Assembly: GCF_022045235.1 (NCBI RefSeq)
Contig: NW_027266275.1
Location: forward strand, 34,410,001-34,474,000
From: Haliotis cracherodii
Lineage: Eukaryota
DNA: 64,000 bases
Reading direction: 5' to 3'
Shown in pieces: positions 41 through 63,421 of this stretch; position 1 is the first letter of the stretch; each line of letters starts with the position of its first letter. The position numbers and the translations under genes were made by a program. The notes below the pieces were generated by a model. The model did not search any database, was not told the origin of the DNA, and saw only the letters and a program-made list of their open reading frames with translations.

Positions 41-3000
41 TTCCCATCAGTGACCCAGAAACCAGAAATGTGATGAAAGTAAAGAAAGGTCAGTCCAGTG
101 CAGCACAAAGACAAGGTGATGTCAACCATTCAACCATGAGAACACTGGATGATGAGGACATTATAGACAAGTTTATGGTAAGTACAGCTGTTAAAATGGG
201 TATGATAAAATAGCTGATCATTGGGGCTGTATTCAATTATTTGGACCCTGTTGGGATCCGGGGCAGAATAGGTCCACCACACACCATACTTATGTAGAAG
301 CTAGCTGATTTACTGTGAGTTGAGGTAAAATGGGGATACACGTCACATTCAAGATTATTGCACTAATATAGTGATGTGTTTATGTGGCTGCTTGGACTAG
401 CCTGGACTAATGGCGGTTTTAAAGTGCTAGCCTAATTGAGCATGCTCAGATACCTTGCCGCAGTACATAATGGATACCCCATCAGACACAGTATACTGAC
501 TCCAACCAGTCCTTGTTTTATCAAGTGCCAGGACGGGTAACAATAAATACCATCTTTTAACTTCTTTTGGTTGGATATTGTTGGTCATGAGTGATAAGCA
601 CTGGATTGTCTGTGTCCCAGACTGTGAATAAGTGAAAAAGAGTTGACATTGGGAAACAGAATTATGCTGTATACATGGAGCCAATGAAATTCTATAAAAA
701 ATATTATATATTGTAGTTTCACAGAAGCGGAGACATAAATCCTACGACAACCAAAAGAGCAGAAAAAGTGAAAATGTGAGTATGGGGTATATTCAGTAGC
801 TGTCAGAATATGGAAGAATATGTCTCACTGCTTCATATTATCTAGAGCCTCTGCCCAGAGGGCAATCCATGGCCATGTCATACCTAAAGATGTCTGTAAA
901 AATTATTTGACAGTTACCAAAGAAACAGTGCACACATCATCTTTGACCTGTAATGTTACGTATTAGAAACTGAAATTAAACCAAAATATATGACCATATG
1001 ATATGAACTGTTTGCTCTGTCAATCTGTTTGCTTATTACGTAGTGCCTTCACTTTGCAGGAGATCAAAAGAGCATAAGCAGAAACACAAAGAGAAGAAGA
1101 AAGAAAAAGATAGAGAAAAAGAAAGAGACTTCAGCCAGTTCAAAGGTTTGAATCAGTACATCCATGTATAAATCATGACAAGAATGTGGGGTTAACAGGA
1201 ATGACAATCTTGAACCCTTGACATCCTTGAACATTTGTGTCACTGAACCTTTAACATCCCTGTTCCTTTGGCATCCTTGAACCCTTGACATCCTTGAACC
1301 TTTGTGTCACTGAACCTTTAACATCCCTGTTCCTTTGGCATCCTTGAACCCTTGACATCCTTGAACCTTTGTGTCACTGAACCTTTAACATCCCTGTTCC
1401 TTTGGCATCCTTGAACCCTTGACATCCTTGAACCTTTGTGTCATTGAAGCTTTAACCACCCTGCTCCTTTGGCATCCTTGATCCCTTGAACCTTTGACAT
1501 CCTTGGACCCTTGACATCCTTTTATCCAAGACATTCTTGAACCTTTGGCAACCTTGAACCCTTGACATCCTTGAACCATTGACATTCTTGAACCTTTGAC
1601 AGCCTTGGACCCTTGACATCTTTGAACCTTTGACAGCCTTGGACCCTTGACATCCTTGAACCATTGACATTCTTGAACCTTTGACAGCCTTGGACCCTTG
1701 ACATCTTTGAACCTTTGACAGCCTTTGACCCTTGGACATCCTTGAACCATTGACATTCTTGAACCTTTGACAGGCTTGGAGCTTTGACATACTTTTATCC
1801 ATGACATCATGTTTCACACCCTTGTCTCTCAGTAGCACAGGTGGGCCAGTTGTTTTATGGGCCACAATTAGCTGTGCATAGTTACATCCATTAGGTATGC
1901 CAGGATCCTATGATCGTGGGTCCAAATTCCAGTTTTGCCCTGATTATATTTCTAGGTTTGTCAGCTTATGGATTTCATCCAGGTGAAAAACATCCAACAT
2001 TAGGCTGACAAGCCAAGATATATCTGAAATACTCATCAAAGTGGCATTAAACCCAACTCACTCATAGAGCAGAACAGGATGCAAGTGTTGACATGTATTT
2101 TCACTGCTGATGTATAGACAACACGGAATATTAGTCATTGCCAGTGATTGTATCTTGAGTATATTTTAATGACGTAGGACTTTTTCTCACATCCCTTTCC
2201 AAAATTTTGTATCACTTTCTCAAAACTCCCCCAAAATATTATGTTGTTTTGGGTGTTAATGTATTGTGCTCTCATTAAGAATACCTAATCAGGTTTTGTA
2301 AAATAATAATGTCGTTGGAAGATGCATGATATGACTGAACAGATTCTTTATGAATATAATGTTGATGTTCCTCCTTACCTCCTGCTTCAGATGAGGTACA
2401 ATTCGGGGAAGTAGTCCATGCTCCCCCAACTCTGTCTGTCCTCCCACGCAAAGCACACACAGAACAAGGAGTTCCTCGGGTAAGTAAAGCACACCGAAAG
2501 AAGAAATGTTTAAGCAAGCAGTGCACACAGGAAGCTCCGATGGTAAGCAGTGCACACGCAATAAGAGGATACCAGGGTAGGAAATGGACCCAGAAAAATA
2601 CTCTCCCAGGGTAAGCAATGCACACAGTACAAGAGGATACCATGGTGAGCAATGGATGTGAAGTCAGCAGATGCTAAGGTAAGCAATGCGCACAAAACAC
2701 AGAGCCCTACAGGTAAGCAAAGATCATAGCACAATAGGATACCGTGGTAAGCAACGGATATGAAGTAGCACATGCCATGGTCAGCAAAGCACACTGAACA
2801 GAGCTCCCAGGGTAAGCAATGGGTACAAAGTAAGCAGATACTAAGGAAAGCAATGCATACGGAACACAGAGCCATAAGGGTAAGCAATGGGCACAGGACT
2901 AAAGGATACCATGGTAAGCAATGGATATATAGTAAGCAGATACTAAGGAAAGCTATGCACACGGAACACAGAGCATTAAGGGTAAGCAATGGATATAAAG

Positions 3001-6863: not shown

Positions 6864-7294
6864 ATGCCAGCCACAAGACGTCTGACCATGTCCGAGTGTG
6901 AGGGCTTTGATTCCGAGGTGGCGGAGTGTTTTTCACGTACAGAACCGACAGGTGTGTGCCGTTATATATGATAACAGAGTTCAACTCTACAACTTCTGTT
7001 TCAATTGAAAAGTGTTTCAGAATCAGCCACTGTATTTCTACCACTTCCTTAATTTCATACGTAGGTATTACTTTCACACTTGCCAGTCTAATTGATTCAA
7101 TACTAAATCCGGTTCTTTTTATTTCAGAGTTTCATGATTCGGTTCCCGAACACGTCACAATAAAACCAAGACCAGTAACCAGGCGTCTGACCGTATCCGA
7201 GTGTGAGGGGTTTGATTCCGAGGTGGCGGAGTGTTTTGCACGTACAGAACCGACAGGTGTGTGTGTGTGTCTATATCTGTGTGTGCGTGCGTGC

Positions 7295-7337
<43 letters not shown>

Positions 7338-8115: not shown

Positions 8116-8774
8116 TGTTATCTAATGTTCATTTTGTTGATCAAATAACAATTGTTATAGTTTAAAAGCAATGTCTTTGTTATTTGTTTTCAACTGCCTG
8201 TGTCCAATAGCTGCAAGTTATGTTTGTTTGTTGTTTAACGCTGCACTAAGCAAAAGTCCAGCTATATGACGACGGCCTGTAAAGTCAGTGATTGATATTG
8301 TAAGCCTTATGATACGATGACACACAATCAACCATGTGACCGAGTCTGACCACCCGATCAGTTTGTCGCCTCTTACGACCATCACAGGTTGCTGGGACCT
8401 TGTCTAACCCGGAATCCCCACGGGGAAACACAGACACAAGATATCTATCAACATTAATATGTAAGGCATCAGTATCATCACACTTCACGAATAAGCCATA
8501 CCGTTCATCCATCCATGCATGGGTTGAGTGTGACATTGCTTCATTTTAGCAATGTTCAAACAATATCGGGGCCATCGAAAATAGACTTCGCGTATTGTAG
8601 TTATTAGGGATCGAACTCTGGGTTTTAGCATCAAGAGCTAACGCTTTAACCAGCTCAGTTAAACCTAATCAATTCATTGCAAGAATACAACATATTTTTC
8701 ATTACATTTTTATTCAACATGATTAGATAATCAAAGAACTGTGTGATTGGTGAGGTACATACCCTTAAGTACTA

Positions 8775-9040
8775 TTTTGTTTGTTTGTTGTTTTACGCCG
8801 CACTCGGCAATATTCCAGCTATATGACGGCGGTGTGTAAATAATCGAGTCTGAACCAGACAATCCTGTGATTGATATCATGAGCATCGATCCACGCAATT
8901 GGGATTCGATGACATGCATCAACCAAGTCAGTAAGCTTGATCACCCGATCCCGTTAGTCGCCTCTTACGACAAACATAGTCGCTTTTTAAGGCAAGCGTG
9001 GGTTGCTGAAGACCTATTCAACCCCGGATCCTCATGGGTC
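8775..9040 (-). mobile_element. Full-length tRNA-less SINE ('family A'), with TSD
   Basis: Flanked by ccttaagtacta/ccttaaatacta. Paralogous at ~13567-13832 and ~18311-18576; empty site in unit 4 near 24376. Confidence 0.88.
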
Positions 9041-9432
9041 CCTTAAATACTAGCCTTGGTAACAGTTGAACTGATTGTTTCACTAAACATCAACACTATC
9101 TATCGTAAATAAAAGAGTTAAAATCCTTTCCATAATCATAAGAAATGTCTGCTGAAAGCCGAGTCCATTGTACGATTCCGACTATATCTTTAACGTGATT
9201 GTGAATTACATGTACTATCAAATAGAGATGACACCAGGTGTTCGCCAAAAGGTGAGCCTATCCTACCCTACCGGTGGCACTCGTCACACACACATGGAAA
9301 GGCAAGTCAAGTATTTGCCTGAAAGACCACAGGAACATATGATACATGCCAGAGTAGGGAATTACGTCGGACATAATAGGGAGAATAGGACAAGGAATCT
9401 AGGGAAAGGCATCGTTTGGAAAATATGGCCTG

Positions 9433-9539
9433 GGCCTCGTCCAACAAAGCAATATTAATGCTACGATTATCGTAAGTCCATGTTAAAGTAAGGGAGTTGC
9501 GGTAGTCCTAGTGCTAAGATCGCTTTGTGAAACGAGGCC
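9433..9539. mobile_element. PIF/Harbinger-type MITE
   Basis: TIR ggcctcgt..acaaagc/gctttgtgaaacgaggcc with a CTG 3-bp TSD. Related copies near 5225-5310, 14220-14326, 18966-19072 and 56968-57055. Confidence 0.6.
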
Positions 9540-15900: not shown

Positions 15901-16359
15901 ATCCCTGTTGCTTTCCAACACTGATGACAGTATCACATAGCTCACAATATAAAAATAAACCTCTTCCGAAAACGAAATTCATTTGAGAAAAAACATGGAA
16001 AAATAGACAATACGTTTTACTGTTTCTGAATTAAGATTGTTAATTATCTTCTTAATATTGGCCCATGATATGATGCTTGTTTTGAAGAAAGTAACGATTT
16101 TATACCAAAGAACAAAGAGCATCTAATGATGATTGTATGTTTCGGCTGATGTGTAGCAATCGGAACACACTCAAAACGAAATAAACCGACCTCTTCCGAA
16201 GGTACTTCCACCGAACGGACGACAGCGAAATCTACCGACTAGACATAGCTATGACGTCATTAGATGATATTGTGACGTCACGCCATTGTCTGACATTGTC
16301 TCAGCAAGCTACAGCAGCACTGCATTACGCTCTTCATTTATCGAGATTATCGAAGCATT

Positions 16360-16762
16360 ATGCCAGTCACAAGACGTCTGACCGAGTCCGAGTGTGAGGG
16401 CTTTGATTCCGAGGTGGCAGAGTGTTTTTCACGTACAGAACCGACAGGTGTGTGCCGTTATATATAATAACAGAGTTCAACCCTACAACTTCTGTTTCAA
16501 TTGAAAAGTGTTTCAGAATCAGCCACTGTATTTCTACCACTTCCTTAATTTTATACGTAGATATATATCCGGCATTACTTTCACACTTGCTAGTTTAATG
16601 GACTCAATACTAAATCCGATTCTTTTTTATTTCAGAGTTTCATGATTCGGTTCCCAAACACGTCACAATAAAACCAAGACCAGTCGCAAAGCGTCTGACC
16701 GTGTCCGAGTGTGAGGGGTTTGATTCCGAGGTGGCGGAGTGTTTTGCACGTACAGAACCGAC

Positions 16763-16813
<51 letters not shown>

Positions 16814-17651
16814 TGTCTGTCTGTTATTCTATGGCCGTGTGTCTGTCTGTTTGTGTGTGTATGTGTGTTTGCCGTGGGTGCTTTCAACTATCATATCCCT
16901 GCAACTTCTTTTAAAAAAGTCTGTATTTACTGTAATTTCTCTGCCAGTTTATCTATTTAACACGGTAAATGTATACGTGCGGATGTTTAAGACTTACCAT
17001 AGAGTTGATTATATACTAAATTCGATTATTGCAATTTCAGAGTTCCACGATTTGGTTCCCAAACACGTCACAATAAAACCAAAACCTATTCGTCCCGAGC
17101 CACCATTCCAATGGGACTGTAGTGAAAAGGACAAACAACTTGGCAAAGAGCTCGAACTCCACGTGCAGCTGACGGCTGTCCTGGTTGAGGTGGACATTCT
17201 CCGGGCTGACCTACGGGCACGACTCCGTTCCAAATGTCTGAAACTGAAGAACCGACATCTTCAGAGACAAGCCAGACAACTCTCGGAGGAGAAAGTCTCC
17301 CTCAGGGAGCAGGTGGATCGCTTGATGAAAGAGGTGGACATGTTGAGAGATGAAAGACTGTGTGTACATTCAGGAGAGGGAGAGGGTGTTGGACTTGTTC
17401 AGAGGTCAGGGGCTACACAGACCACGCGCTTTGACCACATTGTCCAGTCAAAGAATGACATACCTCGTGAACAGGACAAAAGGTCAACAAGAAGACATCA
17501 TGAACTCTCTCAAAGTTGTCTGTCATCAAAGGAACATATGTCATCAAGCACAACCAATTTGATCGAAACTTGTTATCAGAAACAAAATGTACAAAAGTCA
17601 AAATCTTTCTTTCGCCGTTTTACAAAACTGTTCAGCAGAAACAAATGTTAA
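16360..17651 (+). CDS. Uncharacterised 275-aa coiled-coil protein, copy 3 (3 exons)
   Basis: Exons 16360-16447, 16636-16764 and 17041-17651. In-frame one-codon deletion (LRARLR) and one-codon insertion relative to copy 1. Confidence 0.75.
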
Positions 17652-19766
17652 TGTTATTTAATGTTCATTTTGTTGATCAAATAACAATTGTTATAGTTTA
17701 AAAGCAATGTCTTTGTTCTTTCTTTCCAACTGTCTGTGTCCAATAGCTGCAAGTTATGTTTGTTTGTTGTTTAACGCTGCACTAAGCAAACGTCCAGCTA
17801 TATGACGACGGCCTGTAAAGTCAGTGATTGATATTGTAAGCCTTATGATACGATGACACACAATCAACCATGTGACCGAGTCTGACCACCCGATCAGTTT
17901 GTCGCCTCTTACGACCATCACAGGTTGCTGGGACCATGTCTAACCCGGAATCCCCACGGGGAAACACAGACACAAGATATCTATCAACATTAATATGTAA
18001 GGCATCAGTATCATCACACTTCACGAATAAGCCATACCGTTCATCCATCCATGCATGGGTTGAGTGTGACATTGCTTCATTTTAGCAATGTTCAAACAAT
18101 ATCGGGGCCATCGAAAATAGACTTCGTGTATTATAGTTATTAGGGATCGAACTCTGGGTTTTAGCATCAAGAGCTAACGCTTTAACCAGCTCAGTTAAAC
18201 CTAATCAATTCATTGCAAGAATACAACATATTTTTTATTACATTTTTATTCAACATGATTAGATAATCAAAGAACTGTGTGATTGGTGAGGTACATACCC
18301 TTAAGTACTATTTTGTTTGTTTGTTGTTTTACGCCGCACTCGGCAATATTCCAGCTATATGACGGCGGTGTGTAAATAATCGAGTCTGAACCAGACAATC
18401 CTGTGATTGATATCATGAGCATCGATCCACGCAACTGGGATTCGATGACATGCATCAACCAAGTCAGTGAGCTTGATCACCCGATCCCGTTAGTCGCCTC
18501 TTACGACAAACATAGTCGCTTTTTAAGGCAAGAATGGGTTGCTGAAGACCTATTCTAACCCGGATCTTCATGGGTCCCTTAAGTACTCGCCATGGTTACA
18601 GTTGAACTGGTTGTTTCACAAAACATCAACACTATCTATCGTAAATAAAAGAGTTAAAATCCTTTCCATAATCATAAGAAATGTCTGCTGAAAGCAAAAA
18701 TTGTATGATTCCGACTATATCTTTAACGTTTTTGTGAATTACATGTACTATCATATAGAGATGACACCATATGTTCGCGAAAAGGTGAGCCTATCCTACC
18801 CCACCGGTGGCACTCGTCACACACACATGGAAAGGCAAGTCAAGTATTTGCCTGAAAGACCACAGGAACATATGATACATGCCAGAGTAGGGAATTACAT
18901 CGGACATAATAGGGAGAATAGGACAAGGAAACTAGGGAAAGGCATCGTTTGGAAAATGTGGCCTGGGCCTCGTCCCACAAAGCAATATTAATGCTACGAT
19001 TATCGTTTGTACATGTTAAAGTAAGGGAGTTACGGTAGTCCTAGCGTTAAGATCGCTTCGTGAAACGAGGCCCTGGACTTATGTGCATGAGGATCTGGCA
19101 CTGCTATGGAGAAAACATAATTCTCATGGGGAGAATTGATACCCACATTGTTTAGGTCAATGTACACGTGTGTCATTCAAATTTACTCCTATGCCATTCA
19201 CAGACAAAAATCGTATGCACTATACAAGTTCAATAAAAGTATTCAATAGTCTGACACATTGTGACCACACGTAATATTGTAGAGTTGGTTTCAAGGGCGC
19301 TTCAAACAGCATTTCAGTTATGTCACCGCCTGTCAGTATTTTGTGGGTGAAACGCCCAAAGTGATGCAGGTCTTAGACATTTGTCACTTTGGTGAAACCT
19401 ACGAGCACGACTATGAACCTGTGATTCGAGCCCACGATTATCGGATAATAACACGAGTGGATAGGGAATATTGCAGCGCCTTTGACAATCGCCCACCCGT
19501 ACCCCTAAGGGTCACGTTAAGAGCGAAAGACCTAGTTTGTATTGTTATTGCAAGTATTGCAAACTGTGTGGTAATTAAAAAAATACGAAAAGTAGATAAT
19601 GGTCAACATATTCCAACAAAAGGATATATATGCACATTATCATATTTATTTATGATGAATAAACGTATTTACAGGAACGCTAGACAATGAATCTTCCAAT
19701 GTAAAAAATACTTCAAATGTGCTTACTATCTTATTATACTCAATCATCATTATAAAGATATCGGTT

Positions 19767-21352
19767 TTTATCATATAATGGGTAGGTTTCTCGGCAGGAT
19801 AAAGCCAACGGATAAAAACGATATCCGTTGGGGTCATATGCGGATAAAGATGCAAATATCAAAGGTCAAGTAGGGACTACTTTCACTGTTTATAAACAAA
19901 CATGGCGTCATCTGGCGATCGAGTCAGAATTAACCATCGGGAATCTGGATAAACTACAGGGATAATTGCTATCATTATCAAAAGAACAGTCTAATATACT
20001 GAAAATCAGTGTCTAACTGTGACGTAGCTAAGGCATTTTATAAGTTTTGGCAACTTTGGAGATATAAATTTCGAAACAATTTTGCGAGGGCACAAGGCCT
20101 AGCCAAGCGGGATCAGTAGCCATATCTGTGCTTGTAGACCTCTACGGCTTGAAACCTTCTCTACAAATTAAAATAGTTGGATTTGGGACCAAATATGTTT
20201 GAATTGTTACCTTGTTTCGTTTTGTCGCTGTGTGTACATCTGACTACACTTCTTAACATTATGACAGACCGACTGTCAACAACGTCTGACTGTGGCCGTG
20301 ACGTCTCATAGACTAGGGTTAGAGTAGCTTCCCTTTGACAAAGGGCAGTTACTCTAGCGGACAGACCAATGGATTGCCGCGAAAGGAAAATATAAACCAT
20401 TGTTGTTTTGCGTATATGTTGCTTCGCCACTGTATAAGAAACGGATTTCAGTTGGAACTATATTGGCTACTATCACTGTCCGACTGACACATCACTTACC
20501 CTATGACGTAATATATATTAATGCGCGCATTCCAGGAAAACTCGCAATGTTTCGGTAATGTTTGTGAGAGAGGGAAAGCGATTTTGAAGCACAGAATTAA
20601 AGAATGACATTATATGATAAAGAGGTTATCACGGTTGTGTGTTTGGGGATGGTAAATATCCTGTATTAGGAATAAACACTATGTATTTAGCTCGCCAAGG
20701 CTCGCTAAATACAATGTTTATTCCTAATGCAGGATATTTACCATCCCCAAACACACTCGCGTGATAACCTCTATTTATCATGTAATGGGTGGCTTTCTCG
20801 GCAGGATAAAGCCAACGGATAAAAGGGATATCCGTTGGGGTTATACGCGGATAGAGATGCAAATATCAGAGGTCAAGTTGGGACTACTTTCACTGTTAAT
20901 AAACAAACATGGCGTCGCCCTTGTCATTCGGCGATCATGTCAAAATTAACCATCGGGAATCTGGAGAAACTACTGGGATAATATCTATCATTATTAAAAG
21001 AATAGTCTAATATACTGAAAATCAGTATCTAACTGTGCCGTAGATAAGGCATTTTACAAGGTTTGGCAACTTTGGAGATATAAATTGCGGGCAGTAGCCA
21101 AGCGGGATTACTTTCCATATCAGTGCTTGGAGGCCTCTCCGACTTGGAACCTTTTCCACAAATTAAACAGTTGGATTTGGCCGAAATGTGTTCAAATTGT
21201 TACCTTGTTTCGTTTTGTCGTTGTGTGTACATCTGACTGCACTTCGTAACGTTATGACAGGACAGGCCGATTGTCAACAACGCCTGACTGTGGCCTTGAC
21301 TTTTCATAGACTAGGGTTAGAGTAGCTTCCCTTTGATAAAGGCAGTTACTCT
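19767..21352. mobile_element. Unclassified element present as a head-to-tail dimer joined by a ~180-bp hairpin
   Basis: 19767-20360 matches 20774-21352. 14-bp inverted repeat tttatcatataatg/cattatatgataaa; palindrome 20608-20787. Absent from the other array units. Confidence 0.65.
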
Positions 21353-22277
21353 CAGACCCCCAAGGGTCTCTTTAAGAGTTCAAGAACCAGCTTTTTTGGT
21401 AATTGCAAACATTAAAAACTATTGATAAACAAAGTGAGAATCCTCCGGCCTATTGTATGGTGCTGACAAACCAAGAACCAACGTCCAGAGTATCCTAGCT
21501 GCATATGCTACATATGCTAAGGAAGCATGGTTGCACAGCGTCTTACCGTGCCCATGACAACTGGGCCATCTGCTATAATCATGAACTACGAGTCAGTCTA
21601 AAAAGGTGAACATAGAAACTGTTCCATGTATTTCTCACTTGTATAATTGAATCAAAAGACAGAGTTGGGAGGATGTACAACTTTCCATATTTCAGCTACT
21701 CAGTGTCGTGCATGTAGGTATGAAGTTAGAAGCGATGCTGAGATTTCATCTTTCCAAACTTTGGGAATAAACATTCCTAGACACGCCGTTATTTAACTGA
21801 AATAGTGTTCAGGGTGGCGTTAAACCTATCTCACTCACTCATTTTACCTGTAACACAGAATGTTCTTTATAACACCCAATCATTTATTTGAAACGTTTTA
21901 ATTTGGTGCTGACCAACTTATATCCCTGTTGATTTCCTGCGCAAGAATAGGTGTACAGATATAAAGACAATTGTGAAATGCCCAACCACTGATGACAATA
22001 TCACATAGCTTACAATATTAAAATATACCTCTTCCGGAAACGAAAAACATAGACAATACCTTTTACGGCTTTTGAATTCAAATTGTGAATTAATGATTTA
22101 TTATTAGCCCACAATATGATTCTTGTTTTAAAGAAAGTAACGACATTCAACCAAAGAAAAAAGAGCAACTAATGATGGTGGTATGTTTCGGCTGATGTGT
22201 AGCAATCGGAACACACTCAAAACGAAATATACCGACCTCTTCCAAAGGTACTTCCGCCGAACGGACGACAGCGAAAT

Positions 22278-22375
22278 TAGACTGGTTCCCAGATCCTCCG
22301 CTTGGTGTCGCTGCACTTGTTCCGCTTTCCAATCAAAATCCCTGTCTGTCGCAGGAACGAACGGGAACCAGTCTA
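22278..22375. mobile_element. 98-bp MITE with TAG...CTA termini and 9-bp TSD (AcademH-like non-autonomous element)
   Basis: 13-bp TIR tagactggttccc/gggaaccagtcta; TSD cagcgaaat at 22269-22277 and 22376-22384; empty site in copies 1-3. Confidence 0.85.
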
Positions 22376-22513
22376 CAGCGAAATCTACCGACTAGACGGT
22401 CGCTATGACGTCATTAGATGATATTGTGACGTCACGCCATTGTCTGACATTGTCTCAGCAAGCTACAGCAGCACTGCAGAACACTCTTCATTTATCGAGA
22501 TAATTGAAGCATT

Positions 22514-23753
22514 ATGCCAGTCACCAGACGTCTGACCGTGTCCGAATGTGAGGGCTTTGATTCCGAGGTGGCGGAGTGTTTTTCACGTACAGAACCGACA
22601 GGTTCGTGTCGTTATATATGATAACAGAGTTCAACTCTACAACTTCTGATTCAATTGAAAAAAGTTTCAGAATCAGCCACTGTATTTCTACCACTTCCTT
22701 AATTTCATACGAAGGTATTACTTTCACACTTGCCAGTCTAATTGATTCAATACTAAATCCGGTTATTTTTATTTCAGAGTTTCGTGATTCGGTTCCCAAA
22801 CACGTCACAATAAAACCAAGACCAGTCGCAAAGCGTCCGACCGTGTCCGAGTGTGAGGGGTTTGATTCCGAGGTGGCGGAGAGTTTTGCACATACAGAAC
22901 CGACAGGTGTGTGTATGTGTGTGTTTGTGTGTGTGTGCGTGCGTGCGTGCGTGCGTGTGCCGTTGATGCTTTCAACTCGCATATTCCTGCAATTTTATTT
23001 GAGACAAAAAGGTTTCTGTATCACCTGCTATTTTTCTATTTTCTATTTCTATTTCTATTTAAAACGGTAAATGTATATGTGCTGATGTTTTAGACTTACC
23101 ATAGAGTTGATTATATACTAAATTCGATTATTGCAATTTCAGAGTTCCAGGATTTGGTTCCCAAACACGTCACAATAAAACCAAGACCTATTCGTCCCGA
23201 GCCACCATTCCAATGGGACTGTAGTGAAAAGGACAAACAACTTGGCAAAGAGCTCGACCTCCACGTGCAGCTGACGGCTGTTCTGGTTGAGGTGGACATT
23301 CTCCGGGCTGACCTACGAGATGCACGACTCCGTTCCCAACGTCTGAAACTGAAGAACCAACATCTTCAGAGACAAGCCAGACAACTCTCGGAGGAGAAAG
23401 TCTCCCTCAGGGAGCAAGTGGATCGCTTGATGAAAGAGGTGGACATGTTGAGAGCTGAAAGACTGCGTGTACATTCAGGAGAGGGAGAGGGTGTTGTACT
23501 TGTTCAGTGGTCAGGGGCTACACAGACCACGTGTTTTGACCACATTGTCCAATCAAAGAATGGCATTCCTCGTGAACAAGACAACAGGTCAAGAAGACAT
23601 CACGAACTCTCTCAAAGTTGTCTGTCATTAAAGGAACATGTTTCATCAAGCACAACCAATTTGATAGAAACTTGTAATCAGAAACAAAATGTACAAAAGT
23701 CAAAATCTTTCTTTCGTCGTTTTACGAAACTGTTCAGAAGAAACACATGTTAA
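22514..23753 (+). CDS. Uncharacterised 275-aa coiled-coil protein, copy 4 (most divergent)
   Basis: Exons 22514-22601, 22778-22906 and 23143-23753. Splice sites and ORF are intact despite about two dozen amino-acid differences from copy 1 in exon 3. Confidence 0.75.
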
Positions 23754-25377
23754 TGTAATTCAATGTTTATTTTTTAAATCAAATAACAGTTGTAATAGTT
23801 TAAACGCAATGTCTGTTTTTTGTTAAGAACTGTCTGTGTTGAATGGCTACAGGATATGTTTTTTATCTTGTTGTTTAACGCCGCACTCAGCTATATGACG
23901 GCGGCCTGTAAAGTTAGGGGTTGATATTGGGAGCAAGTATCGACGCCATATAATTAGGCATACGATGAAACGCTAACCAAATCGCCGAGCCTGACAACCC
24001 TATCGTTTAGGTCGCCTCTTCCGACCAGCACAGGTTGCTGGGACCTATTAAAACCCGGAATCCCTGAGGGGAAACATAGCCACAAGATCGATCTACATTA
24101 ATATGTAAGGCATCAGTATCACCACATTTCACGAATTTGCCATACATGGGTTAGTGTGATATTACTCCAGTTTTAGCAGTGTTCAAGGATCTCCATGTCT
24201 TGTACCTATTTGGAATCGAAGTCGGCGTTTTGCCATTAAGAACGAACACTTTAACCACTAGGATATTTTGTTGAACCAAAGTAATTCATCACAAGAGTAC
24301 AACATATTTTTCATCAAGTATTTATTCAAAATGATTAGATAATCAAAGAAGTGTGTGGTCGGTGAGATACATCCCCTTAAGTACTAGCCTTGTAACAGTT
24401 GAATTGATTGCTACATATCAACACTATCTACCGTAAATAAAAAGACAAAATCCTTTCCATAATCATAAGACATCTCTGGTGAAAGCCGAGTCCATTGTAC
24501 GATTCCGACTATATCTTTAACATAAAGCGACTATGCTTGTCGTAAGAGGCGAGTGACGGGATCGGGTGGTCAGGCTCGCTGATTGGTTGATGCATGTCAT
24601 CGATCCCAATCGTGTGGATCGATGCTCATGTCAATCACTGGATTCCCGGTCCAGACTCGATTATTTACAGACCGCCGTCATATAGCTGGAATATTGCTGA
24701 GTGCGGCTTTAAACACTCGCGCACCGTGTGTTCCGTTCCCGAACTGGTCCGCTATGCGTTAGAGCCGACTTCAATGAGAATCGTGGGGTCAGGTTCTGTG
24801 ACTTACTGCATGTCATCAAACACTGGATGGTTGCCAGCTGCTTCCAACCAAGCATCTCGAGCCACGTATGACGTGTGCATAGATAATGTATAGACATGTT
24901 TGGTCAATTAAATAATTTCTTCAACTTCCCCTCCCATGTCCAGTTATAATACCGTTTTCATGTTTAAATATTCATCAACGATTTCAGACTAAAACCCGGG
25001 TCTTGAAGCTGTTCAGTGTCAATTGTAGCGTGATGTGATGGCTAATCTTGACTACCAAAAGCAAATTTTTGAAAGAACTCCATATCGAGGCTGTGGGAGT
25101 CAAACATTCAACACCTTGATTAATTAAACCCCAACTAACTACAAACTCAACCGGGGGGATCGATAGGGACGCGGTTTACCGAGAAATCCAGTATCACCAT
25201 TCCACTGGTGTCCGAGGTGTCATGTAGTACACGGAATACGCCGAGTTGACCCGAATGTACTCCATGTCTTTAGCTCATAATCAAGCCCATGCATTTTCGC
25301 AGCCAGATAGGAACGGAGTGTAACATTACGATGACAAAGAAACGCAAAAAAAGTATATTCAAACTGATTTTAAAATA

Positions 25378-25441: not shown

Positions 25442-28400
25442 CTAGGATTTTGTCTTGGCCTTGCTCTTCTTGGGGGTGCCTTTCTTGCTGGCGGGCTTTG
25501 CCTGGAACACGAGAAAACATTCGGCATGCACCTTGGTTAAGACATGTCGGACAGATTGTTAAGATAAATTAAGTGAGTGAGTGAGTGAGTGAGTTGGGTT
25601 TAACGCCGCTTTTAACATTATTTCAGTTATATCACGGCGTGTTTAGATAAATTAAGATGTTCAGCACGTTTTCAATATAAATACATTTGTATTCAATCAG
25701 GTGTGGTTTGATAAAATGGAGATAAACTTGCAAATTGTTACTGAAATTCAAATCCACAAACAAACGTTGAAAGTGGAACTCGCCAGGTTTGGTTTGGTTT
25801 GTTTGTTGTTTAACGCCGCACTCAGCAATATTCCAGCTATATGACGGCGGTCTAAATAATCGAGTCTGGACCAGACAATCCAGTGATTGATATCATGAGC
25901 ATCGATCCACGCAATTGGGACCGATGACATACATTTACCAAGTCGGCGAGCCTGACCACCCGATCCCATTGGTCACCTTTTACGACAAGCATAGTCGCTA
26001 CATCACGGCATGTCAGCTTATTGTGGGAGGAAAGCCCGAAGTGATTGAGGTCTGAGTTTTACCATTTTGGTGAAACCCGCGAACATGGGTATGGTTCTGA
26101 CTTAGAAACATAATCAGGGCCAAAATCACTGGTTCCTGGAGTGTACACGGGACGCAACTTTGCTTTAGATATGGTTAAAAAAAATTTATCTTTCACCGAC
26201 ACTCAAAACCGATTCTCATGTGAGGTTTAGATTTCAAATAGAACGACATTATCCTTAAACGTTGAGTAGCATATGTATTCCCGCATTATATGCGCGTCTC
26301 CTTAAAAGCAAACTTGGCAACAACAAAAAGATCCGAAGCCTATTTTGCAACGTCGGGTGTTTCCCGAAACACTGGCCTAAGGGTGGCACCAGTATAGGAA
26401 GCCAGTTGGGCTAACAATCAACATATAGAAGTATGTAGGGCCCACCATTCAAATACACTGCAAGGCTACATAACTGATGTTACCGTTTGTATGTCAAGTT
26501 GGACTACACTTTTCATAGGGATGCTATTTATACTAAGGTAAGGACGTTAACCGACTGTAAAAGTCCAGTTTCCACCCTTGCCGAAATAGGCTGCATTTTC
26601 AGGGCTCGATCGTAGCTTCACAAGTGGCTATTACGAGTTATGTCCCTTCTACGTCCCTTCTATGTCCCCCATATGGACCAATCAGATTCCACCTATCATA
26701 TTTCTTGCATTTGCTTCAAACAAAATGGCAGCGTCAAATCAGGACAATCTGATCGATAATAATGATCTATATTGTAATAAGAGTCCGACTCAGCGAAGTG
26801 CATAAAAATTACTTGAGCACCTTGAATAAAAACATGAAAATATTTGTAAAATAGCTGACGATGCCCAGCTGACGTTAAATATGGTTTGCAAATCCTGCAA
26901 TCGACCGAAATCTGCACGGCAGCTTACGCATGTCGATTTCGTTACGCGATTTTGTGTTCATCTAGATTCGTTTGTCCAGCCAAAATTCCAGCTTAAAAAG
27001 TTCGAAACTGCACTTTTACAATCAGTTTACTCCCTTGCCTCGGGAAGATAAACGGTTGAACTTAAAATAGTTTTGTTTGTTGTTTAACGCCGCACTCAGC
27101 AATATTCAAGCTATATGACGGCGGTCTGTAAATCGAGTCTGGGCCAGACAATCCAGTGATTGATATAATGAGCATCGATCCACGTCAAGTGACCAAGTCA
27201 GCGAGCCTGACCACCCGATCCCGTTAGTCGCCTCTTACGACAAGCATAGTCACCTTTTACGGCAAGCATGGGTTGCTGAAGACCTATTCTACCCCGGAAT
27301 CTTCACGGGTCTGAGCTTAAAATGAGAGTTTGGTTCCACGCCGTTTTGTACAGTATTTCAGTTATATATCACAGCGAGACCGAAGCGATGCACGCCTTAG
27401 ACGTTTACCACTTCGGTGGGACGGATGTGGCGCTGACAAACCTAGAAACAATCAGGGTGACTCCGGGATTCAAACCGACTGTAGGTTTCTGCAACGTCAA
27501 ATGGAAGTACAGCAGACTTGTGGCACCTTAGACTGGGCCACCCGTTCCCACACTGACCACAGGCCGTTGTGTTGATTAAATTCGAGGTCAATTAATGAGT
27601 GCCAGAAATACACATCATATATATACTCACTGACAAAAGAAACGCAAACCATACAAACAGATGTACGTTAAGAAGATTACTTTCCAATGTGTACCACTTT
27701 ATGACAAAACTAACAATCAGTCAAGTAAAAGGTGACTGCTTGTCGTAAGAGGCGAGGGATCGTGTTGTCAGGCTCGCGGACGTGGTTGATGCATGTCATC
27801 GTATCCCAACTGTGTAGATCGATGCTCATGATATCAATTGTCTGGTCCAGATTCGATTATTTACAGATCGCCGTCATACAGCTGGAATATTGCCGAGTGC
27901 CGAGTTTCACAATGCAAAATAAATGTGGCTTCCTGGCAAACACTCAAGAAGTCAAATGAATGACAATCAATCGCTTGTCAAATAATATCGAACTTTTCCA
28001 GTCCTTTAGATTTGTCAAAAATGTAAAGCGTCTGTGTGGTTTTTGTGAGTAACTAAAAACATGCATGATAGAAAATAGATGAAATTACTACTGATGCATT
28101 ATGTAAAAACGATAATGGTAGCAATTTTCGGGTTTACACTAAGACCGTATGACTGATTCAGACAGTATACCGACTCTAAGACAAGACGACCAGTCCTTTT
28201 TTAGCCCCTTAATGCCGAGCGCCAGGCAGGGTTACAACAAGAACCACCTTTCAATGTCTATCGGTATGACGCGACCGGGGATCAAACCCCGGGCCTTCCG
28301 CTCTCCGGGCGGACGCTCTACCACTAGACCACGAGACCATCTCCTCTTGCGACAAACCTGGGTTGCTGAAGATCAATTCTTATCTTAGGTGTGATCCCGT

Positions 28401-35787: not shown

Positions 35788-36058
35788 TGTTGGTTGGTTG
35801 GTTTGTTGTTTAACACCGCACTCAGCAATATTCAAGCTATATGACGGCGGTCTGTAAATAATCGAGTCTGGACCAGACAATCCAGTGATTAATATCATGA
35901 GCATCGATCCACGCAATTGGGATCGATGACATGCATCAACCAAGTCAGCGAGCCTGACCACCCGACCCCGTTAGTCGCCTTTTACGACAAGCATAGTCAC
36001 CTTTTACAGCAAGCATGGGTTGCTGAAGACCTATTCTACCCCGGAATCTTTACGGGTC
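35788..36058 (-). mobile_element. Full-length family A SINE
   Basis: Matches 27069-27311 end to end. Confidence 0.88.
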
Positions 36059-37830: not shown

Positions 37831-38724
37831 GTTATATTCTGAACCCAAACTACATGTATAAATCAAATTATGATGTCATTTCACAATACAACTGTTGCAA
37901 CCCTTACTTGAGGCCATCATAAATTAATTATTAGATTGTCAAAGCTACCAAGCAGCCCGCATCACATCATTGATTGTCCCCAAGTACCTACAGACGAAGA
38001 AAATGTTTGCCCTCTGTGTTTACGTGATGAAATACCCCATATGTGTAGCATGCCCCATGTGAATCTCGTCGACAGTTGATGTATACACAGATGACTTGAA
38101 CAGTTGCTTAAAAATTCAGGAAATATAAAAAATAAAATGAACCCCGCCTACTCAGTACTGTGGCCTGACGATACTCTGCTGTGCCATGTGCAAGACTCGT
38201 GTGAGGAAAAACTCATCATCATCATCATCATCATAATCATCATCCATGTTCAGGGAGCGATATGAGCCCTGTTCTCAGCATAGACTGTATAACAGATATA
38301 TGCACGTGTTCCAACAACAAATTCATAGATTACCATATTTTCTCCGACAAGTTTATGTCACGGACATCCGTGAACATCCGGGTTAGAATTGGTCTTCAGC
38401 AACCCATGCTTGTCGGGAGAGGCGACTAACGGGGTCGGGTGGTCAGGCTCGCTGACTTGGTTGATGCATGTCACCGTTTCCCAAATGATGTAGGCTGATG
38501 TTCAGAGATTAGAGGGGTGATGAATGAAAATGACGTTGGAAATAAACAAATAGAAATATTGAGAGTTTATTATTTAATTGCACTAGTTTAAGTGCCTCGA
38601 GAAAAGTCCATGGGTAAGTGAATGTAAAATAAATGCATTGTCAAATTATGTACTTTTATGTTTTTGTTTCTAGACATATAGTTTTTGTTTTTGTTTCGTG
38701 ATATCACTCCGATAGGCAGAGTGT

Positions 38725-44274: not shown

Positions 44275-44536
44275 GACCGGTAAAGATCCGCGAGGTAGAC
44301 TAGGTCTTCAGCAACCCATGCTTGCCGTAAGAGGCGACTATGCTTGTCGTAAGAGGCGACTAACGGGATCGGGTGGTAAGGCTCACTAACTTGGTTTGAT
44401 GCATCGTATCACAATTGCGTGGATCGATGCTCATGATGTCAATCACTGGATTGTCGGTCCAGACTTGATTATTTACAGACCGCCGTCATATAGCTGGAAT
44501 ATTGCTGAGCGCGGCGTTAAACAACAAACAAACAAC
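44275..44536 (+). mobile_element. Full-length family A SINE
   Basis: GACC head, duplicated 22-bp tgcttg.cgtaagaggcgacta module, AAAC tail, degenerate TSD. Confidence 0.85.
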
Positions 44537-58066: not shown

Positions 58067-58910
58067 CCGCTCATTTAGGCTCAAATAAAAGCCATGATAG
58101 CGAATGAGTCCAAGCTATTGATATGAGTGGAGATATAACACAATGGATACTCGAGGTTGTGATATTTTGTTGTAATGTGTTTTCCACATGTCGACTGACA
58201 TGAATCCGTTGTTGTATCATATTGCCTCTCCCAAAAAGGGAACGCTGCACGTAATGACCTCCACGTCCTACCAATGGGATATAGTTAATGTCATGTGATG
58301 CTGCCGTAAATGTGCCCTGTGTATACCTTCCTGAGTAACAGTACGGGCTTAGCTGATAGCATTAACATGACGTCAAGCGAGTTCACTTCCTCGTTAGTTA
58401 ACAGCCTCTATTGTTCAGCGATCTTCCATTTACGAAATCGAGGAAAATCCGGAAAGAGAACAGTGTTTTGTTATTTTTTTCCATTGACAATTTTAAAACC
58501 TGTATTCTGATTAGTCTGCCAGTGGGATTGATGACGTTGTTAAGGTGAGACAATGCTTAATGTCCTACCCATTTCAGAGTACCGTATTTCCCCGATTAAA
58601 CGCCCGGGCGTATATTTCTTTCAGACGCTCTTTACTCCCGACGTTCAGTCCCGACGATAATAGATCCGTGAAGATCCTGGTTAGAATAGGTTTTCAGCAA
58701 CCTATGCTTGTCGTGAGAGGCGACTAACGGATCGGGTGATCAAATGGGTAGATAGATGCTCATGATGTCAATCATTGGATTGTCTGGCCCAGACTCGATT
58801 ATTTCAGACCGCCGTCATATAGATGGAATATTGCTGAGTCCGGCGTTAAACAACAAACAAACAAACAAACAAAAGAAAATAATGGGTAAAATTCCGAGTA
58901 TAAAAACTAC

Positions 58911-59385: not shown

Positions 59386-60880
59386 GATACGATGATATGC
59401 ATCAACCATGTCAGCAAGCCTGACCGATACCATTAGTCGCCTCTTTTACGACAAGCATTTTGGCCTTTTACGGCAGACATGGGTTGCTGAAGACCTATTC
59501 TGATCTTCACTGGTGTGTTTCCGTCAGAGGAACCTGTGCTAACTTGCGTGTAAGGTATCAAATGAAATTTACAGGTTTCAAATTTGCACGGTGCCAGGTA
59601 GTTTATATCAACAATCCTTATAGGAATATATTTATTGGATCATTTCCATTGAATGATTCGACCAAATTAAAATTAAATTAGATTTTAGCTTGAAAATGCA
59701 ACCATAAATTGTCACAACAGCCACAGAAAACTCAACTGCATCTCTAACAGCGCTGTAATAAGAAAAAAACGCGTTTAACATTTTTTCTCGATTGCGTATT
59801 TATGTTTTTGAAATGTTATACAAACGGATTCATTGTTGATAAGAGAAAGGTTACTGTCACACGATCACAAATGTACAATTTGTTTATGTTAGATAATTTT
59901 TCATTCCTCACAGAGTTATCTAAATACATCCACATGTCAAGTATGCATAATTAATTTTATTTGAATGACGGTTTGGTTTGTTTATTCTCTCGTTTCTTAT
60001 CGTTGTCTCATCGGAAAGGGCCTATCCACGAGAAAGGACTCCGTTATTGAGAAGGGGTGTTTATGTTCGTGTTTTTCCCCCATCATATTAACCCGTCAGG
60101 ATTCTGGATAAGAATATATATTAGTTCCTAAGCAACCCATGCCTGTCGTAAGAGGCGACGAAATGGTCTTATCCCAATTGCTTGGATCGATGCTCATGGT
60201 ATTTGGAGACCCCTGTCGCATAGTTGGAATACTCAATGGGGCGTTAAACAACACACAAACAAACAAAATCCAATCACATTACGTCGGGGACGACATAATG
60301 GGTTCATTGTACACATGCTGGGAATCGAACCAGGGATATCGACGTTATGAGCCATCGCTTTGACCACTTGGCTAACCCACCGCGTCGCTTTATGATGGGA
60401 TAGAGCCGCTAAAACAGTTTTCAAATTATAAATTATCACTTTTTTCATATTGTTTGACACAGTAGCCACAACGCAGTATTCCCTCCATATCGTAGACGGG
60501 GCCTGTAAATGATAGAGTGTGAATTCCACGAACAAGTGGTTGATATGATGATCACCGTCACACGCCCTCTGGGTACGATGACACACAATCAAGTCACAAA
60601 GCCTGCCCACCCGATCCCCATTTTAGTTATATTTTCTCCTTTTCCAGTTGGGTTAGTGAGAGAGTGAGTTGGGTTCAACACCCCTTTTAACAGTATTCCA
60701 GTTTTTTCACGGTGTGTCAGCGTCATGTTGGAGGAAAACCCGAAGTGATGCAGGTCTCACTTTGGTGAAACCCACGAGCACGGGTATGGTGCTGACAAAC
60801 CCAGAAAGATAATCGGGGCCCATTGAAGTCGACTGTTCAAACAAGCATGAATGAATTGTGTACATTGTCGCATAAGAGTA

Positions 60881-61775: not shown

Positions 61776-63161
61776 GCCAATACGTAGACAAAATACATGT
61801 AATGTTCAAATTTCCTGAGTCATATGAAGCATACTCCGTTATCCATAAACTAAAATGCTTCACAACTGGCATTGTATTTAAGGTGCGAGTTCAGTGTGAT
61901 CTCAGTTGTGTTTACTGTAAAAATCAATATCAGCCTGTGACCAAATTCCAAAATGAAATGTGTACCATGATATATATTCAAAGCTTTCTGAGTATATATT
62001 ATTATTGAAAGCCCACTGTAAACCAATTTTGACACTTCTGGAATAAGATCGTCACAAGGTCATCATATACGATCATCCCAGATAAATTTAGAGTTGTTTA
62101 GATGGTTAGGGTTATGAATCCATAACTTTTAAGAATCGGATTAATTTCTGACACCCCTTAGATTGGCATTCTTAATTCTTTAAAATCGGATATATATATT
62201 TATCGGGGCCTCAATTATTCAAAGATAACTTCATTAACACCTTTTAATTTAATTTTGGCAAAGCATGCAAGGTCAAGGTCAAGCCAACTGCCACGTATCC
62301 TTGACACGAATATTGTGCGTAAGACCGCGGCAGATGAAAGTGGTCAGGGTTTGGTGCCAGCGTTGTAACTTGCGCGTTCCCCCTCGCCCACCTGGCTTTT
62401 CTTATCAGCCTGGTATTTTTAGGCAGTACACCTGAGACATCCAAGTCTAATATTAGCCTTCAGTTCGCGCCACGCCCCGCGCCTGACATCACCGCACGCG
62501 AGATTCTCGCGAGAAGAATGTACTGAGGGAGCAACTTTTTGACGTGTATACAAACCACATATTGAAAGTGCAGTTGTAAAAAAACGTATAGCTTAAACCA
62601 TTCAATTCAGTCCTATTGTTTCAATAATCCCAAGAATGTTTAATGTGTAAGCCGAATATTTTAGTTAACACACTTGTAAATACCCAAGCCCCGTTGTGTG
62701 CGAACACGCCAATCTCCATCTTGTCGAGCCTGTAGTTTACGTTGAACAAGAGCTCTTAACACTTGCAATTACTTGTGGTACTGTGGATAGCTTTGCAGAT
62801 CTATCTTACACACAATACCGTGTTTATTTAACGTGGGCCATACAGCTGTCTGACTGGTGCTAAGCATTAAAGTAATATTTGCCAATTCATTCAAGAGGGT
62901 ATAAGTTTGTACTCCGGCTATGCGAGAACGCTGAAGCAATAGTGTTAAGAGCCCGTCTTCAAGTAACTGTACGGAGGGCAACAGAACTGGATTATTTCAA
63001 TAGTGAATTGCCTCATCCTCACTTGTAGTTTCTAATAATACAATAAACATGTTTATCTTTTTTTTTGCAAACGTTATTTTATTTAACAGTTACTGGGACA
63101 GGGTATTTGACTTTAACTTCTGTTGGTGCCCGTGCAGTCTAAAATCGTCGTTTCTCCGTGT

Positions 63162-63421
63162 TTGTTTGTTGTTTTAACGCCGCACTCAGCAATATTCCAG
63201 CTTATATGACGGCGGTCTGTAAATAATCGAGTCTGGACCAGACAATCCAGTGATTGTCATCATGATCATCGATCCACCTAATTGGGATCAATGACATGCT
63301 TCAAACAAATCAGCGAGCCTTACCAACCGATCTCTTTAGTCGCCTCTTACGACCAGCTTAGTCGCCTTTTACGGCAAGCATAGGTTGCTGACGACCTATT
63401 CTACCCCGGATCTTCACGGGC
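63162..63421 (-). mobile_element. Full-length family A SINE
   Basis: TSD cgtttctccgtgt/cgtttctccatgt. Confidence 0.88.

Follow-up and report, generated by a model that had tools for sequence, protein, structure and literature searches.

The SINE of the window and its 5' end

The analysed window, a 64,000-nucleotide stretch of Haliotis cracherodii DNA, contains an abundant SINE with a length of about 260 nt. An earlier note on this DNA had counted about 20 copies or fragments; 22 heads are recovered there by a covariance model, and extrapolation gives about 140,000 near-full copies in the genome. The full copy at 27072..27311 on the minus strand consists of an LP-type head, a body with a deletion of about 20 nt and a Nimb-type tail. 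Its 12-nt 5' TSD (27312..27323) adjoins the first base, G1, and its 3' TSD (27057..27068) has one mismatch. The tail contains a stem-loop (27088..27123) homologous to the 3' ends of the Nimb/I-type LINEs of this genome and also to those of two tRNA-headed SINEs, and terminal (AAAC)n-type repeats (27072..27087). Further full-length copies lie at 35798..36058 (minus strand, double module), 44275..44532 (plus strand, weak TSD), 63161..63421 (minus strand, with TSD) and 8780..9040 (minus strand, with TSD), the last having paralogues at 13572-13832 and 18316-18576 and an empty paralogous target site at 24375..24394 (minus strand). An old single-module copy with a compensated stem 2 occupies 8223..8429 (minus strand), with paralogues ending at 13221 and 17965 and a relative ending at 24074. 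Since the copies ending at 9040, 13832 and 18576 and those ending at 8429, 13221 and 17965 are paralogues in a locally duplicated block, they are not independent. The plus strand carries a single-module head used as a seed row of the covariance model (38362..38440), a single-module copy with an internal deletion (58660..58861), an old divergent copy with an altered stem 2 (60087..60260) and an isolated divergent head fragment (242..339).

TSDs place the starts of four copies at 9040, 27311, 44275 and 63421, in agreement with the earlier note. The empty site said to fix the boundary is present at about 24375, but the boundary there is uncertain by 1 base because the target continues with G. Genome-wide, 87 full copies were examined, and in the 30 with a perfect TSD of at least 9 nt the TSD stops exactly before G1 in 19 and within 1 nt of it in 25, so that the 5' ends are sharp rather than ragged. 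In an overlapping copy set, 24 of 39 TSDs end exactly before G1. The first base is G in 68 of the 87 full copies.

The element has no tRNA-derived head, is flanked by TSDs and ends in terminal tandem repeats, as LP-SINEs do. The reported lack of a tRNA holds, and that of A/B boxes holds except for one weak B-box-like 9-mer in the body (27180-27172), which is too far downstream to set the SINE 5' end. The SINE and its head sequence are already described as LP-SINEs by Matetovici et al. (2016; PMC4758252), where the LP ("LINE promoter") head is presumed to be a promoter and is assigned to Hdi_LP/Hmi_LP, Lsa_2, Sgl_LP and the scallop MESC SINEs as well as to the 5' ends of the LINEs Nimb-17_LMi, I-3_DR and RTE-9_CPB. 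The common traits are a non-tRNA head of about 70 nt shared with LINE 5' ends, TSDs, a tandem-repeat tail and a length of about 255-261 nt. The "Nimb-17 homology" region of the scallop elements has the same blocks as the SINE head, and the scallop head in supplementary Fig. S2 combines these blocks with a compensated stem 2 (PMC4758252). Hdi_LP/Hmi_LP were compared by their description, in which only the length (255 bp) agrees, and the AATATA hexamer named there is absent from the tail of the present SINE. The parts of PMC4758252 used here differ from our account in proposing a promoter and in giving neither a secondary structure nor a viral occurrence.

Predicted fold of the SINE head

The head of the copy at 27072..27311 is predicted to form an H-type pseudoknot followed by a hairpin domain. 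On the minus strand, G1 and A2 (27311, 27310) precede the 5' strand of stem 1, CCCG (27306..27309), a single U as loop 1 (27305..27305; in 16 of 18 families), the 7-nt 5' strand of stem 2 (27298..27304), the 3' strand of stem 1, CGGG (27293..27296), loop 3 with an invariant AGAAU at its end (27285..27292) and the 3' strand of stem 2 (27278..27284). The hairpin domain is closed by P3 (5' strand, 27267..27272; 3' strand, 27220..27223) and contains a first, degenerate copy of a duplicated 22-nt module (27247..27268) and a second module (27225-27246), inside which lies an invariant GUCG/CGAC hairpin with a 7-nt loop (27227..27241). Among 133 heads, 40 have a single module, 88 a double one and 5 three or more, in agreement with the single and doubled modules seen earlier. 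Long insertions 5' of AGAAU are tolerated in loop 3 of other families.

Across 18 independent families, 106 of the 126 stem-2 positions are paired, as compared with 73.3±4.9 under a cross-family permutation null in a fixed, sequence-anchored register, and none of 20,000 permutations reaches 106. P3 gives 71 paired positions against 55.6±4.0 permuted, with 4 of 20,000 permutations as high. The 18-family set excludes a family with a long insertion, for which the anchor failed, and one family duplicating a stem 2, and anchors were picked by hand where several fitted. In alignment A2, two-sided changes occur in 7 of 7 stem-2 pairs and 4 of 5 P3 pairs, and the covariation score is 0.456, as against 0.165 when shuffled and at most 0.14 when slid. 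The helix that follows CCCG covaries as the earlier note had it, but with 7 bp instead of 8, the conserved U after CCCG being the 1-nt loop 1. P3, the stem proposed to enclose the GUCG/CGAC hairpin, covaries as well, but the pairing of the hairpin itself is without covariation support because its sequence never varies. Single-sequence MFE folding, a method that cannot show a pseudoknot, yields mixed structures.

The covariation is strong between families rather than within the genome. The divergent copies named earlier as changing both strands of stem 2 are present, but changes in the dominant subfamily mostly break pairs (42 copies; 20 changes breaking pairs, 6 keeping them, none double). Within the genome, only a few old single-module copies show compensation of stem 2; one pair is compensated (Fisher p=0.002) and its neighbour is not (p=1; 107 of 111 copies).

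An invariant 19-mer is found in the motif, although part of this invariance is produced by the search patterns used, and 76 of 208 matches begin within the first 10 model positions, a high share of copies reaching position 1. Both would fit another role at the RNA level, such as a signal for packaging or for protein binding, or a fold that does no more than help the reverse transcriptase to finish at the 5' end; such a role gives no shared reason for a presence in viral 3' UTRs and at LINE 5' ends, and we regard it as highly improbable.

The sharp 5' end, together with a compact pseudoknot and invariant nucleotides, would also suit a new class of self-cleaving ribozyme cutting just 5' of stem 1. 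At gathering scores Rfam matches nothing in the window, and up to E=10 it matches nothing in the SINE element. In agreement with the earlier note, the head does not thread onto the HDV-like or pistol fold, and its covarying helices stand in another order. The pistol ribozyme has a short P1 with a loop pseudoknot, an A-rich linker, a GCG/GU core, and P2/P3. The SINE head likewise has a short P1, a loop pseudoknot and an A-rich linker, but neither a P2 strand between the linker and the pseudoknot strand nor a GCG/GU core. Like the HDV-like ribozymes of non-LTR retroelements (L1Tc/NARTc Pr77, R2), it is a short module common to LINE and SINE 5' ends, whereas the nested double pseudoknot of these ribozymes (P1, P1.1, P2, P3, L3, J4/2 C) is wholly absent from it. 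Twister, hatchet, hairpin and hammerhead ribozymes do not fit either when threaded by eye onto their consensus structures.

The motif in LINEs, host genes and RNA viruses

The motif also heads Nimb/I-type LINEs (L398-L427, L229). In all 28 motif-bearing loci among 30 fetched from this genome, the motif directly follows the first 58 nt of the LINE, which, judged from its pairing, is a complete predicted HDV-like ribozyme of minimal size, comprising P1 with a G1-U wobble, P2, P3, L3, P1.1 and the J4/2 C, with all pairs present; it scores 27.5-29 bits against RF02682, below the gathering score of 44. The SINE motif hence begins where the LINE ribozyme ends. The TSD adjoins the ribozyme G1 in 9 of 10 LINEs, and in none of the 28 loci does the LINE begin with the motif itself. 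As the LINE 5' end is that of the putative ribozyme and the motif stays uncut behind it in all 28, the edge of the motif is neither a cleavage site nor a transcription start in these LINEs. These LINEs share the SINE head and have a homologous tail, which goes part of the way towards the autonomous partner sought earlier, but a tail identical to that of the SINE is absent from ten LINEs. No long LINE ORF lies downstream of the motif in 120 metagenome loci.

A cut at the motif would strip the HDV-like part from the LINE RNA, yet 28 of 28 loci keep this part, which argues against the new 5'-end ribozyme proposed in the earlier note. Retroelements do use HDV-like, twister and hammerhead ribozymes (PMC6765202), UTR ribozymes occur in some linear RNA viruses (PMC13725137), and one LINE (L525), whose 5' end is provisional, carries the motif without an HDV-like part upstream. 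In 60 genic 10-kb stretches, 56 intact heads are in sense and 14 in antisense orientation, and the sense genic heads show no depletion when set against the control elements (Fisher p=0.70 and 0.55), again unlike what is expected of a self-cleaving RNA. Furthermore, viral genomes cut in this way would lose their 3' end downstream of the last ORF. Therefore, we consider a ribozyme in the head very unlikely. The sense excess of 56:14 places many copies in Pol II transcripts in the orientation needed for processing from host RNA, with no visible cost, but it singles out no mechanism because it is common to all SINEs tested (headless copies, 52:15; two tRNA SINEs, 64:20 and 54:18). Three small-RNA runs gave 8, 113 and 13 sparse, short reads, none of them at the SINE 5' end. 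Contigs of possibly-RNA runs extend past G1 into unrelated flanks, and such contigs do not reveal RNA status, strand or ends.

Like the window SINE, three SINE families from metagenomes have their first base 1-2 nt upstream of stem 1; this base is A or G in 33 of 39, 24 of 28 and 5 of 10 copies. A purine first base is also expected of an internal Pol II promoter with a start at +1/+2, for which, in the manner of Pr77, the RNA fold would serve a second purpose, and G followed by A would fit a cap copied onto an A start. A promoter is proposed for LP-SINEs in section 10 of PMC4758252, and a dual promoter-RNA element has precedent (PMC3383444). Indirect evidence from the viral copies and the LINE arrangement speaks against a promoter as the conserved function; RNA viruses keep the motif with compensatory changes, so that the internal promoter suggested earlier, taken as a plain DNA promoter, is not supported, and the dual element seems quite unlikely.

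The complete motif lies in the sense strand of the 3' UTR, after the last long ORF, in six RNA-virus-like contigs: three with an RdRP_3 (tombus-like) match (L220, L222, L527), one with RdRP_4/1 (L368), one with a Peptidase_A21 capsid (L213=L221) and one with only an S-domain coat and no RdRP match (L526). The motif is present in tandem copies in L526 and L527, and one large DNA virus carries an intergenic copy. Tighter viral scans returned the full motif in 5 of 16, 7 of 40, 7 of 14, 8 of 23 and 8 of 11 matches, largely on the same contigs, the rest being mostly chance; no copy was seen in which the invariant hairpin had changed in a compensatory way. A loose viral scan, which serves only as a negative control, gave the full motif in none of the 120 stretches listed and a covariance-model match in none of the 80 of these searched, and no match was found in a phage collection. 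A readthrough or frameshift signal was rejected, as the motif stands ahead of ORF1 in the LINEs and has no ORF behind it in the viruses.

The main competing explanation is that the motif acts, in the manner of a 3' CITE, by recruiting ribosomes or by promoting cap-independent translation of uncapped LINE and tombus-like viral RNA; the SINE would keep it to reach ribosomes making the LINE reverse transcriptase. The invariant hairpin sequence is reminiscent of the BTE 17-mer. The motif of the three tombus-like contigs lies in the 3' UTR, where CITEs are located, ribozyme-cut LINE RNA is capless (PMC3383444), and such an element would account for the need of a motif after the LINE ribozyme. On the other hand, it leaves unexplained why non-coding SINEs of several unrelated families begin so precisely at the base of stem 1, needs neither tandem copies nor an intergenic DNA-virus copy, and finds no Rfam match of the BTE/PTE types to the motif in the window or in the five virus loci searched, where Rfam gave no match at all. 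We consider it unlikely.

Exoribonuclease resistance as a candidate function

The reading that we favour, with about an even chance of being right, is that the SINE head belongs to the RNAs resistant to 5'-3' exoribonucleases (xrRNAs), with a new fold, and would define the SINE 5' end by stalling Xrn1/2. The head pseudoknot and the capped hairpin may block Xrn1/Xrn2 in the way viral xrRNAs do, AGAAU possibly docking in the minor groove of stem 1 and the 7-nt hairpin loop possibly playing a T-loop-like role. Decay of a host transcript running through a copy would then stop at the first bases of the SINE, releasing from introns or UTRs an SINE RNA with a precise 5' end and without a promoter, on whose shared tail a Nimb-type reverse transcriptase could prime. 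A wider version, to which we give somewhat less than an even chance, is that this is a new xrRNA class common to animal retrotransposons and RNA viruses, in which tens of thousands of sense genic copies of a promoter-less SINE would be cut from host transcripts by Xrn stalling, and the partner LINEs would carry the same fold behind an HDV-like ribozyme.

The covariation of stem 2 and P3 indicates that the motif works as RNA. A pseudoknot at the 5' edge and a position in viral UTRs are traits of xrRNAs, which mostly lie in viral 3' UTRs (PMC10520033). Published halt sites, at the base of P1 in class 3 xrRNA (PMC12397905) and one nucleotide before hp1 in coremin (PMC10520033), compare with SINE starts 1-2 nt before stem 1 and are counted in favour of an xrRNA; the scallop element starts at the C run itself (PMC4758252, supplementary Fig. 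S2). Class 3 xrRNAs (Tombusviridae/Solemoviridae; ST9a, PMC12397905) resemble the motif in lying in viral 3' UTRs, possibly in a T-loop, and in opening the protected RNA with a small pseudoknot whose first helix has the 5' end at its base. However, they are described as consisting of P1, J1/2 and P2 with a T-loop (L2B) in the apical loop, whereas the SINE motif has a single stem 1 of 3-5 bp, a 1-nt loop 1, a 7-bp stem 2 and, further downstream, a hairpin domain of its own. Coremin (PMC10520033, PMC10321173) likewise has a 4-bp first hairpin, an A-rich spacer, a second hairpin, a halt one base upstream and sometimes several copies, but its YGAD/YGNNAD loop and its second hairpin, conserved only in structure (PMC10520033), differ from the variable 8-9 nt loop pairing downstream and the sequence-invariant second hairpin of the SINE motif.

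The fold fits no known xrRNA class, and topology alone proves nothing because ordinary frameshift-type H-pseudoknots do not stall Xrn1 (PMC10321173). Other points also weigh against an xrRNA. In four families the first base of most copies is a purine, which would suit transcription starts or a copied cap as well. An Xrn1 block behind a ribozyme leaving a 5'-OH looks partly redundant, and no LINE among the 28 loci begins at the motif. xrRNAs stall scanning ribosomes (PMC10520033), a property that sits uneasily with a place in a LINE 5' UTR except where ribosomes enter internally. The invariance of the 19-mer points to a conserved host factor that binds it, and a pure roadblock would need none.

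xrRNAs are known from viruses, and if the xrRNA reading is true, a chromosomal xrRNA would be present here in more than 100,000 copies, as a motif exchanged between LINE clades, SINEs and RNA viruses. Retroelements would then have, in addition to promoters and ribozymes, a third means of fixing their 5' ends, and the question left by Matetovici et al. on the role of the shared 70-nt head would be answered. Even if the role is in translation or elsewhere, the head is a compact, deeply conserved RNA motif without an Rfam family.

A SINE with a sharp 5' end and a conserved pseudoknot head

The SINE copy at 27311-27072 on the minus strand carries the motif as its head, and its 12-nt target-site duplication (TSD) ends directly before its first base, G1. 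No tRNA was found in this SINE, in keeping with the earlier note's description of a tRNA-less element with TSDs. A 9-mer of its body (27172-27180, minus strand) fits the minimal B-box consensus, and no clear A box was seen alongside it. A covariance model search finds 22 SINE heads in the window. SINE profile matches number 208 in 58 random 10-kb genome stretches, 68 of them near full length, and extrapolation to 1.18 Gb gives about 1.4 × 10^5 near-full copies genome-wide. The 5' end is sharp, as the earlier note held: perfect TSDs of at least 9 nt flank 30 of 87 full copies, ending exactly before G1 in 19 of the 30 and at most one base away in 25, and an empty site near 24375 agrees with the boundary at a resolution of one base. 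Position 1 is G in 68 and position 2 is A in 74 of the 87 copies, and the base preceding G1 shows no bias. The empty-site comparison comes from 5691-24521, where a unit of about 4.7 kb with SINE copies is repeated about four times and a stretch of N lies at 11959-12091. A tRNA-headed SINE with the same tail type (27326-27552, minus strand) ends just upstream of the 27311-27072 copy, and a head fragment near 28340 is split by another tRNA-type SINE. Two runs under a related organism label contain small RNAs with a common start at 35855-35897; these are about 30 nt long, run for the most part antisense to the body of the SINE, and may be piRNA-like. The SINEs present suggest a gastropod, for instance an abalone.

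An exact metagenome scan for a conserved 19-mer gave at least 120 loci, mostly three large SINE groups plus several singletons of similar layout. One SINE family (L074, L075 and related metagenome loci) has about 50 nt of short repeats in tandem inserted into loop 3 and keeps both pseudoknot ends. When 18 families with distinct stem-2 sequences from metagenome SINEs, LINEs and viruses were compared in a fixed register, with some anchors picked by hand and one long-insertion family left out, stem 2 paired in 106 of 126 cells, compared with 73.3±4.9 when 5' and 3' strands were permuted between families (0 of 20,000 permutations as high); Watson-Crick pairs alone gave 93 against 52. The helix P3 paired in 71 cells against 55.6 permuted (4 of 20,000). 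When 12 sequences were aligned by MAFFT without guidance, two-sided changes occur in 7/7 stem-2 pairs and 4/5 P3 pairs, stem 1 is 94% paired with little variation, and the GUCG/CGAC hairpin is invariant and, because its sequence never varies, yields no covariation verdict. In the resulting model, stem 1 has 3-5 bp, loop 1 a single nucleotide (U in 16/18 families), stem 2 7 bp and loop 2 0-1 nt; loop 3 varies in length and ends in AGAAU. Downstream come P3, an internal loop and then the invariant hairpin, whose loop reads U-A-W-R-A-R-G. Of 133 SINE heads, 40 have one 22-nt module, 88 have two and 5 have more. The covarying pseudoknot proposed in the earlier note is thus well supported across families by comparative sequence evidence. 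The compensated stem-2 copies that it described are present in older single-module copies, but among 42 copies of the dominant subfamily in the H. cracherodii genome 20 stem-pair changes break, 6 keep and none doubly alter a pair, a subfamily that is decaying neutrally.

The SINE type has been described already. In the 'LINE-promoter'-headed LP-SINEs of Matetovici et al. 2016, the head of about 70 nt recurs at the 5' termini of Nimb-17_LMi, I-3_DR and RTE-9_CPB, and the available part of that account proposes the head as a promoter and cites the Pr77 promoter-ribozyme as a parallel (PMC4758252). The scallop head in its Fig. S2 is built from the blocks also present in the H. cracherodii SINE, with a different yet still complementary stem 2. 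No other LP-SINE account was found in the openly accessible literature searched; within the same scope, the entries listed for xrRNAs, pseudoknots, ribozymes, retrotransposons and viruses gave no description of the motif, and variant spellings of its conserved 15-mer were absent from the published text searched. The Rfam comparison returned no matching family. The RNA fold is apparently new, and the SINE head appears to be a previously undescribed conserved RNA motif.

The motif in LINEs and viruses

In two loci from bacterial assemblies, the motif stands ahead of an I/Nimb-type ORF1 and endonuclease. With that ORF1 as query, the motif precedes the matching section of ORF1 by about 600 nt in 28 of 30 fetched H. 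cracherodii loci, its stem 2 again different and compensated. These LINEs are about 6.2 kb long, with ORF1 and an ORF2 containing EN, RT and RNase H. Of the autonomous LINE sharing both SINE ends that had been anticipated, the head is thus found, but the tail is homologous and not identical. Directly upstream of the motif, all 28 motif-bearing loci share a 58-nt segment (one with an internal deletion), which can form the full set of HDV-like ribozyme helices (P1, including a G1-U wobble, P2, P3, L3, P1.1 and the J4/2 C). The TSD adjoins G1 of this segment in 9 of 10 full-length LINEs, so that the LINE 5' end is probably made by the predicted ribozyme. It scores 27.5-29 bits against RF02682, below the gathering threshold of 44, so that such a minimal ribozyme is easily missed; this 58-nt form, which has almost no P4, starts the Nimb/I-type LINEs of this genome at L398:792-849 and L510-L519.

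The complete motif also occurs on the sense strand 3' of the last long ORF in six distinct virus contigs, each with a different stem 2. Three encode RdRP_3 (L220, L222, L527), one RdRP_4/1 (L368) and one a Peptidase_A21 capsid (L213=L221); the sixth, L526 (6138 nt), has an S-domain coat ORF, a 1217-aa ORF without a Pfam match and two tandem motifs at its end, and gave no RdRP match. The motif, also tandem in L527, lies 14-119 nt from the contig end, and a SINE body follows it in none of the six. Among the listed partial-pattern chance matches of a loose viral scan, 0 of 120 had the full motif. In a 212-kb DNA virus contig (L364:2480-2552), the motif occupies an interval between two ORFs and follows a DNA-ligase-like gene, without a SINE or LINE body and with a stem 2 near that of the H. 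cracherodii SINE.

Candidate functions of the motif

The motif is probably not the new ribozyme envisaged in the earlier note, a reading that we regard as improbable. In favour of a ribozyme, linear RNA viruses can have such elements in their UTRs (PMC13725137, available part). One LINE (L525) has the motif without the HDV-like part, which points the same way. This complete animal-type LINE (L229/L525, G001:C4:518905-; ORF1 521 aa, ORF2 1238 aa) lies within a bacterial assembly scaffold and may be host contamination or an insertion. However, a cut past the last ORF would take the 3' end off a viral genome, and the HDV-like segment is retained upstream in 28/28 LINE loci; since that ribozyme would otherwise be lost, the motif would neither cut nor start transcription at its own edge in LINEs. 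A self-cutter in pre-mRNAs should, moreover, be depleted in sense. The 60 genic stretches compared (L428-L487) are centred on kinase/myosin exons or fall within myosin genes; protein motifs confirm the gene strand in 42 and contradict it in none, and an intronic location is not established for every base. Among intact heads in these stretches, 56 are in sense and 14 in antisense, a ratio similar to that of headless copies (52:15) and of two tRNA SINEs (64:20, 54:18; Fisher p=0.70, 0.55). This argues moderately against a cutter, although intronic ribozymes are tolerated in other systems. Random stretches give 80:81, and the three SINE families are each 3-4 times commoner in sense, with 39 loci sense-major and 7 antisense-major; the available part of PMC11481361 reports no such sense excess in host genes.

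Retention of the upstream ribozyme also counts against a promoter as the end-defining function of the head, which is only marginally less doubtful than a ribozyme, the mostly purine first bases being compatible with transcription starts. A cap-independent translation element, the main rival, is a possible but unlikely reading that accounts well for the LINEs and tombus-like viruses and leaves the SINE 5' end unexplained. Some other function is the least probable.

There is about an even chance that the motif is an xrRNA-like structure resistant to 5'-3' exoribonucleases. Resistance fits its positions best: known xrRNAs are mostly located in 3' UTRs (PMC10520033, available part), and the stopping point of Xrn1 is the foot of P1 (PMC12397905, available part) or a position one nucleotide upstream of the first hairpin (PMC10520033), which matches the start of the SINE and of three further families. 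A host transcript or excised intron with a sense SINE copy would be trimmed 5' to 3', the fold would stop the trimming enzyme at the SINE head, and the tail would then be primed by a Nimb-type RT; tails are common to mollusc SINEs and Nimb in the accessible text of PMC4824008 and PMC11481361. The xrRNA reading is weakened because Xrn1 is not stalled by ordinary frameshift pseudoknots of the H type (PMC10321173, available part), and the fold is neither a class 3 xrRNA nor coremin. The purine starts, which also fit transcription, and the seemingly partial redundancy of an Xrn block behind a ribozyme count against it as well. The common ground of LINE 5' ends, SINEs without a promoter and the 3' UTRs of viruses can be a role at the RNA level, at the 5' boundary of an uncapped molecule.
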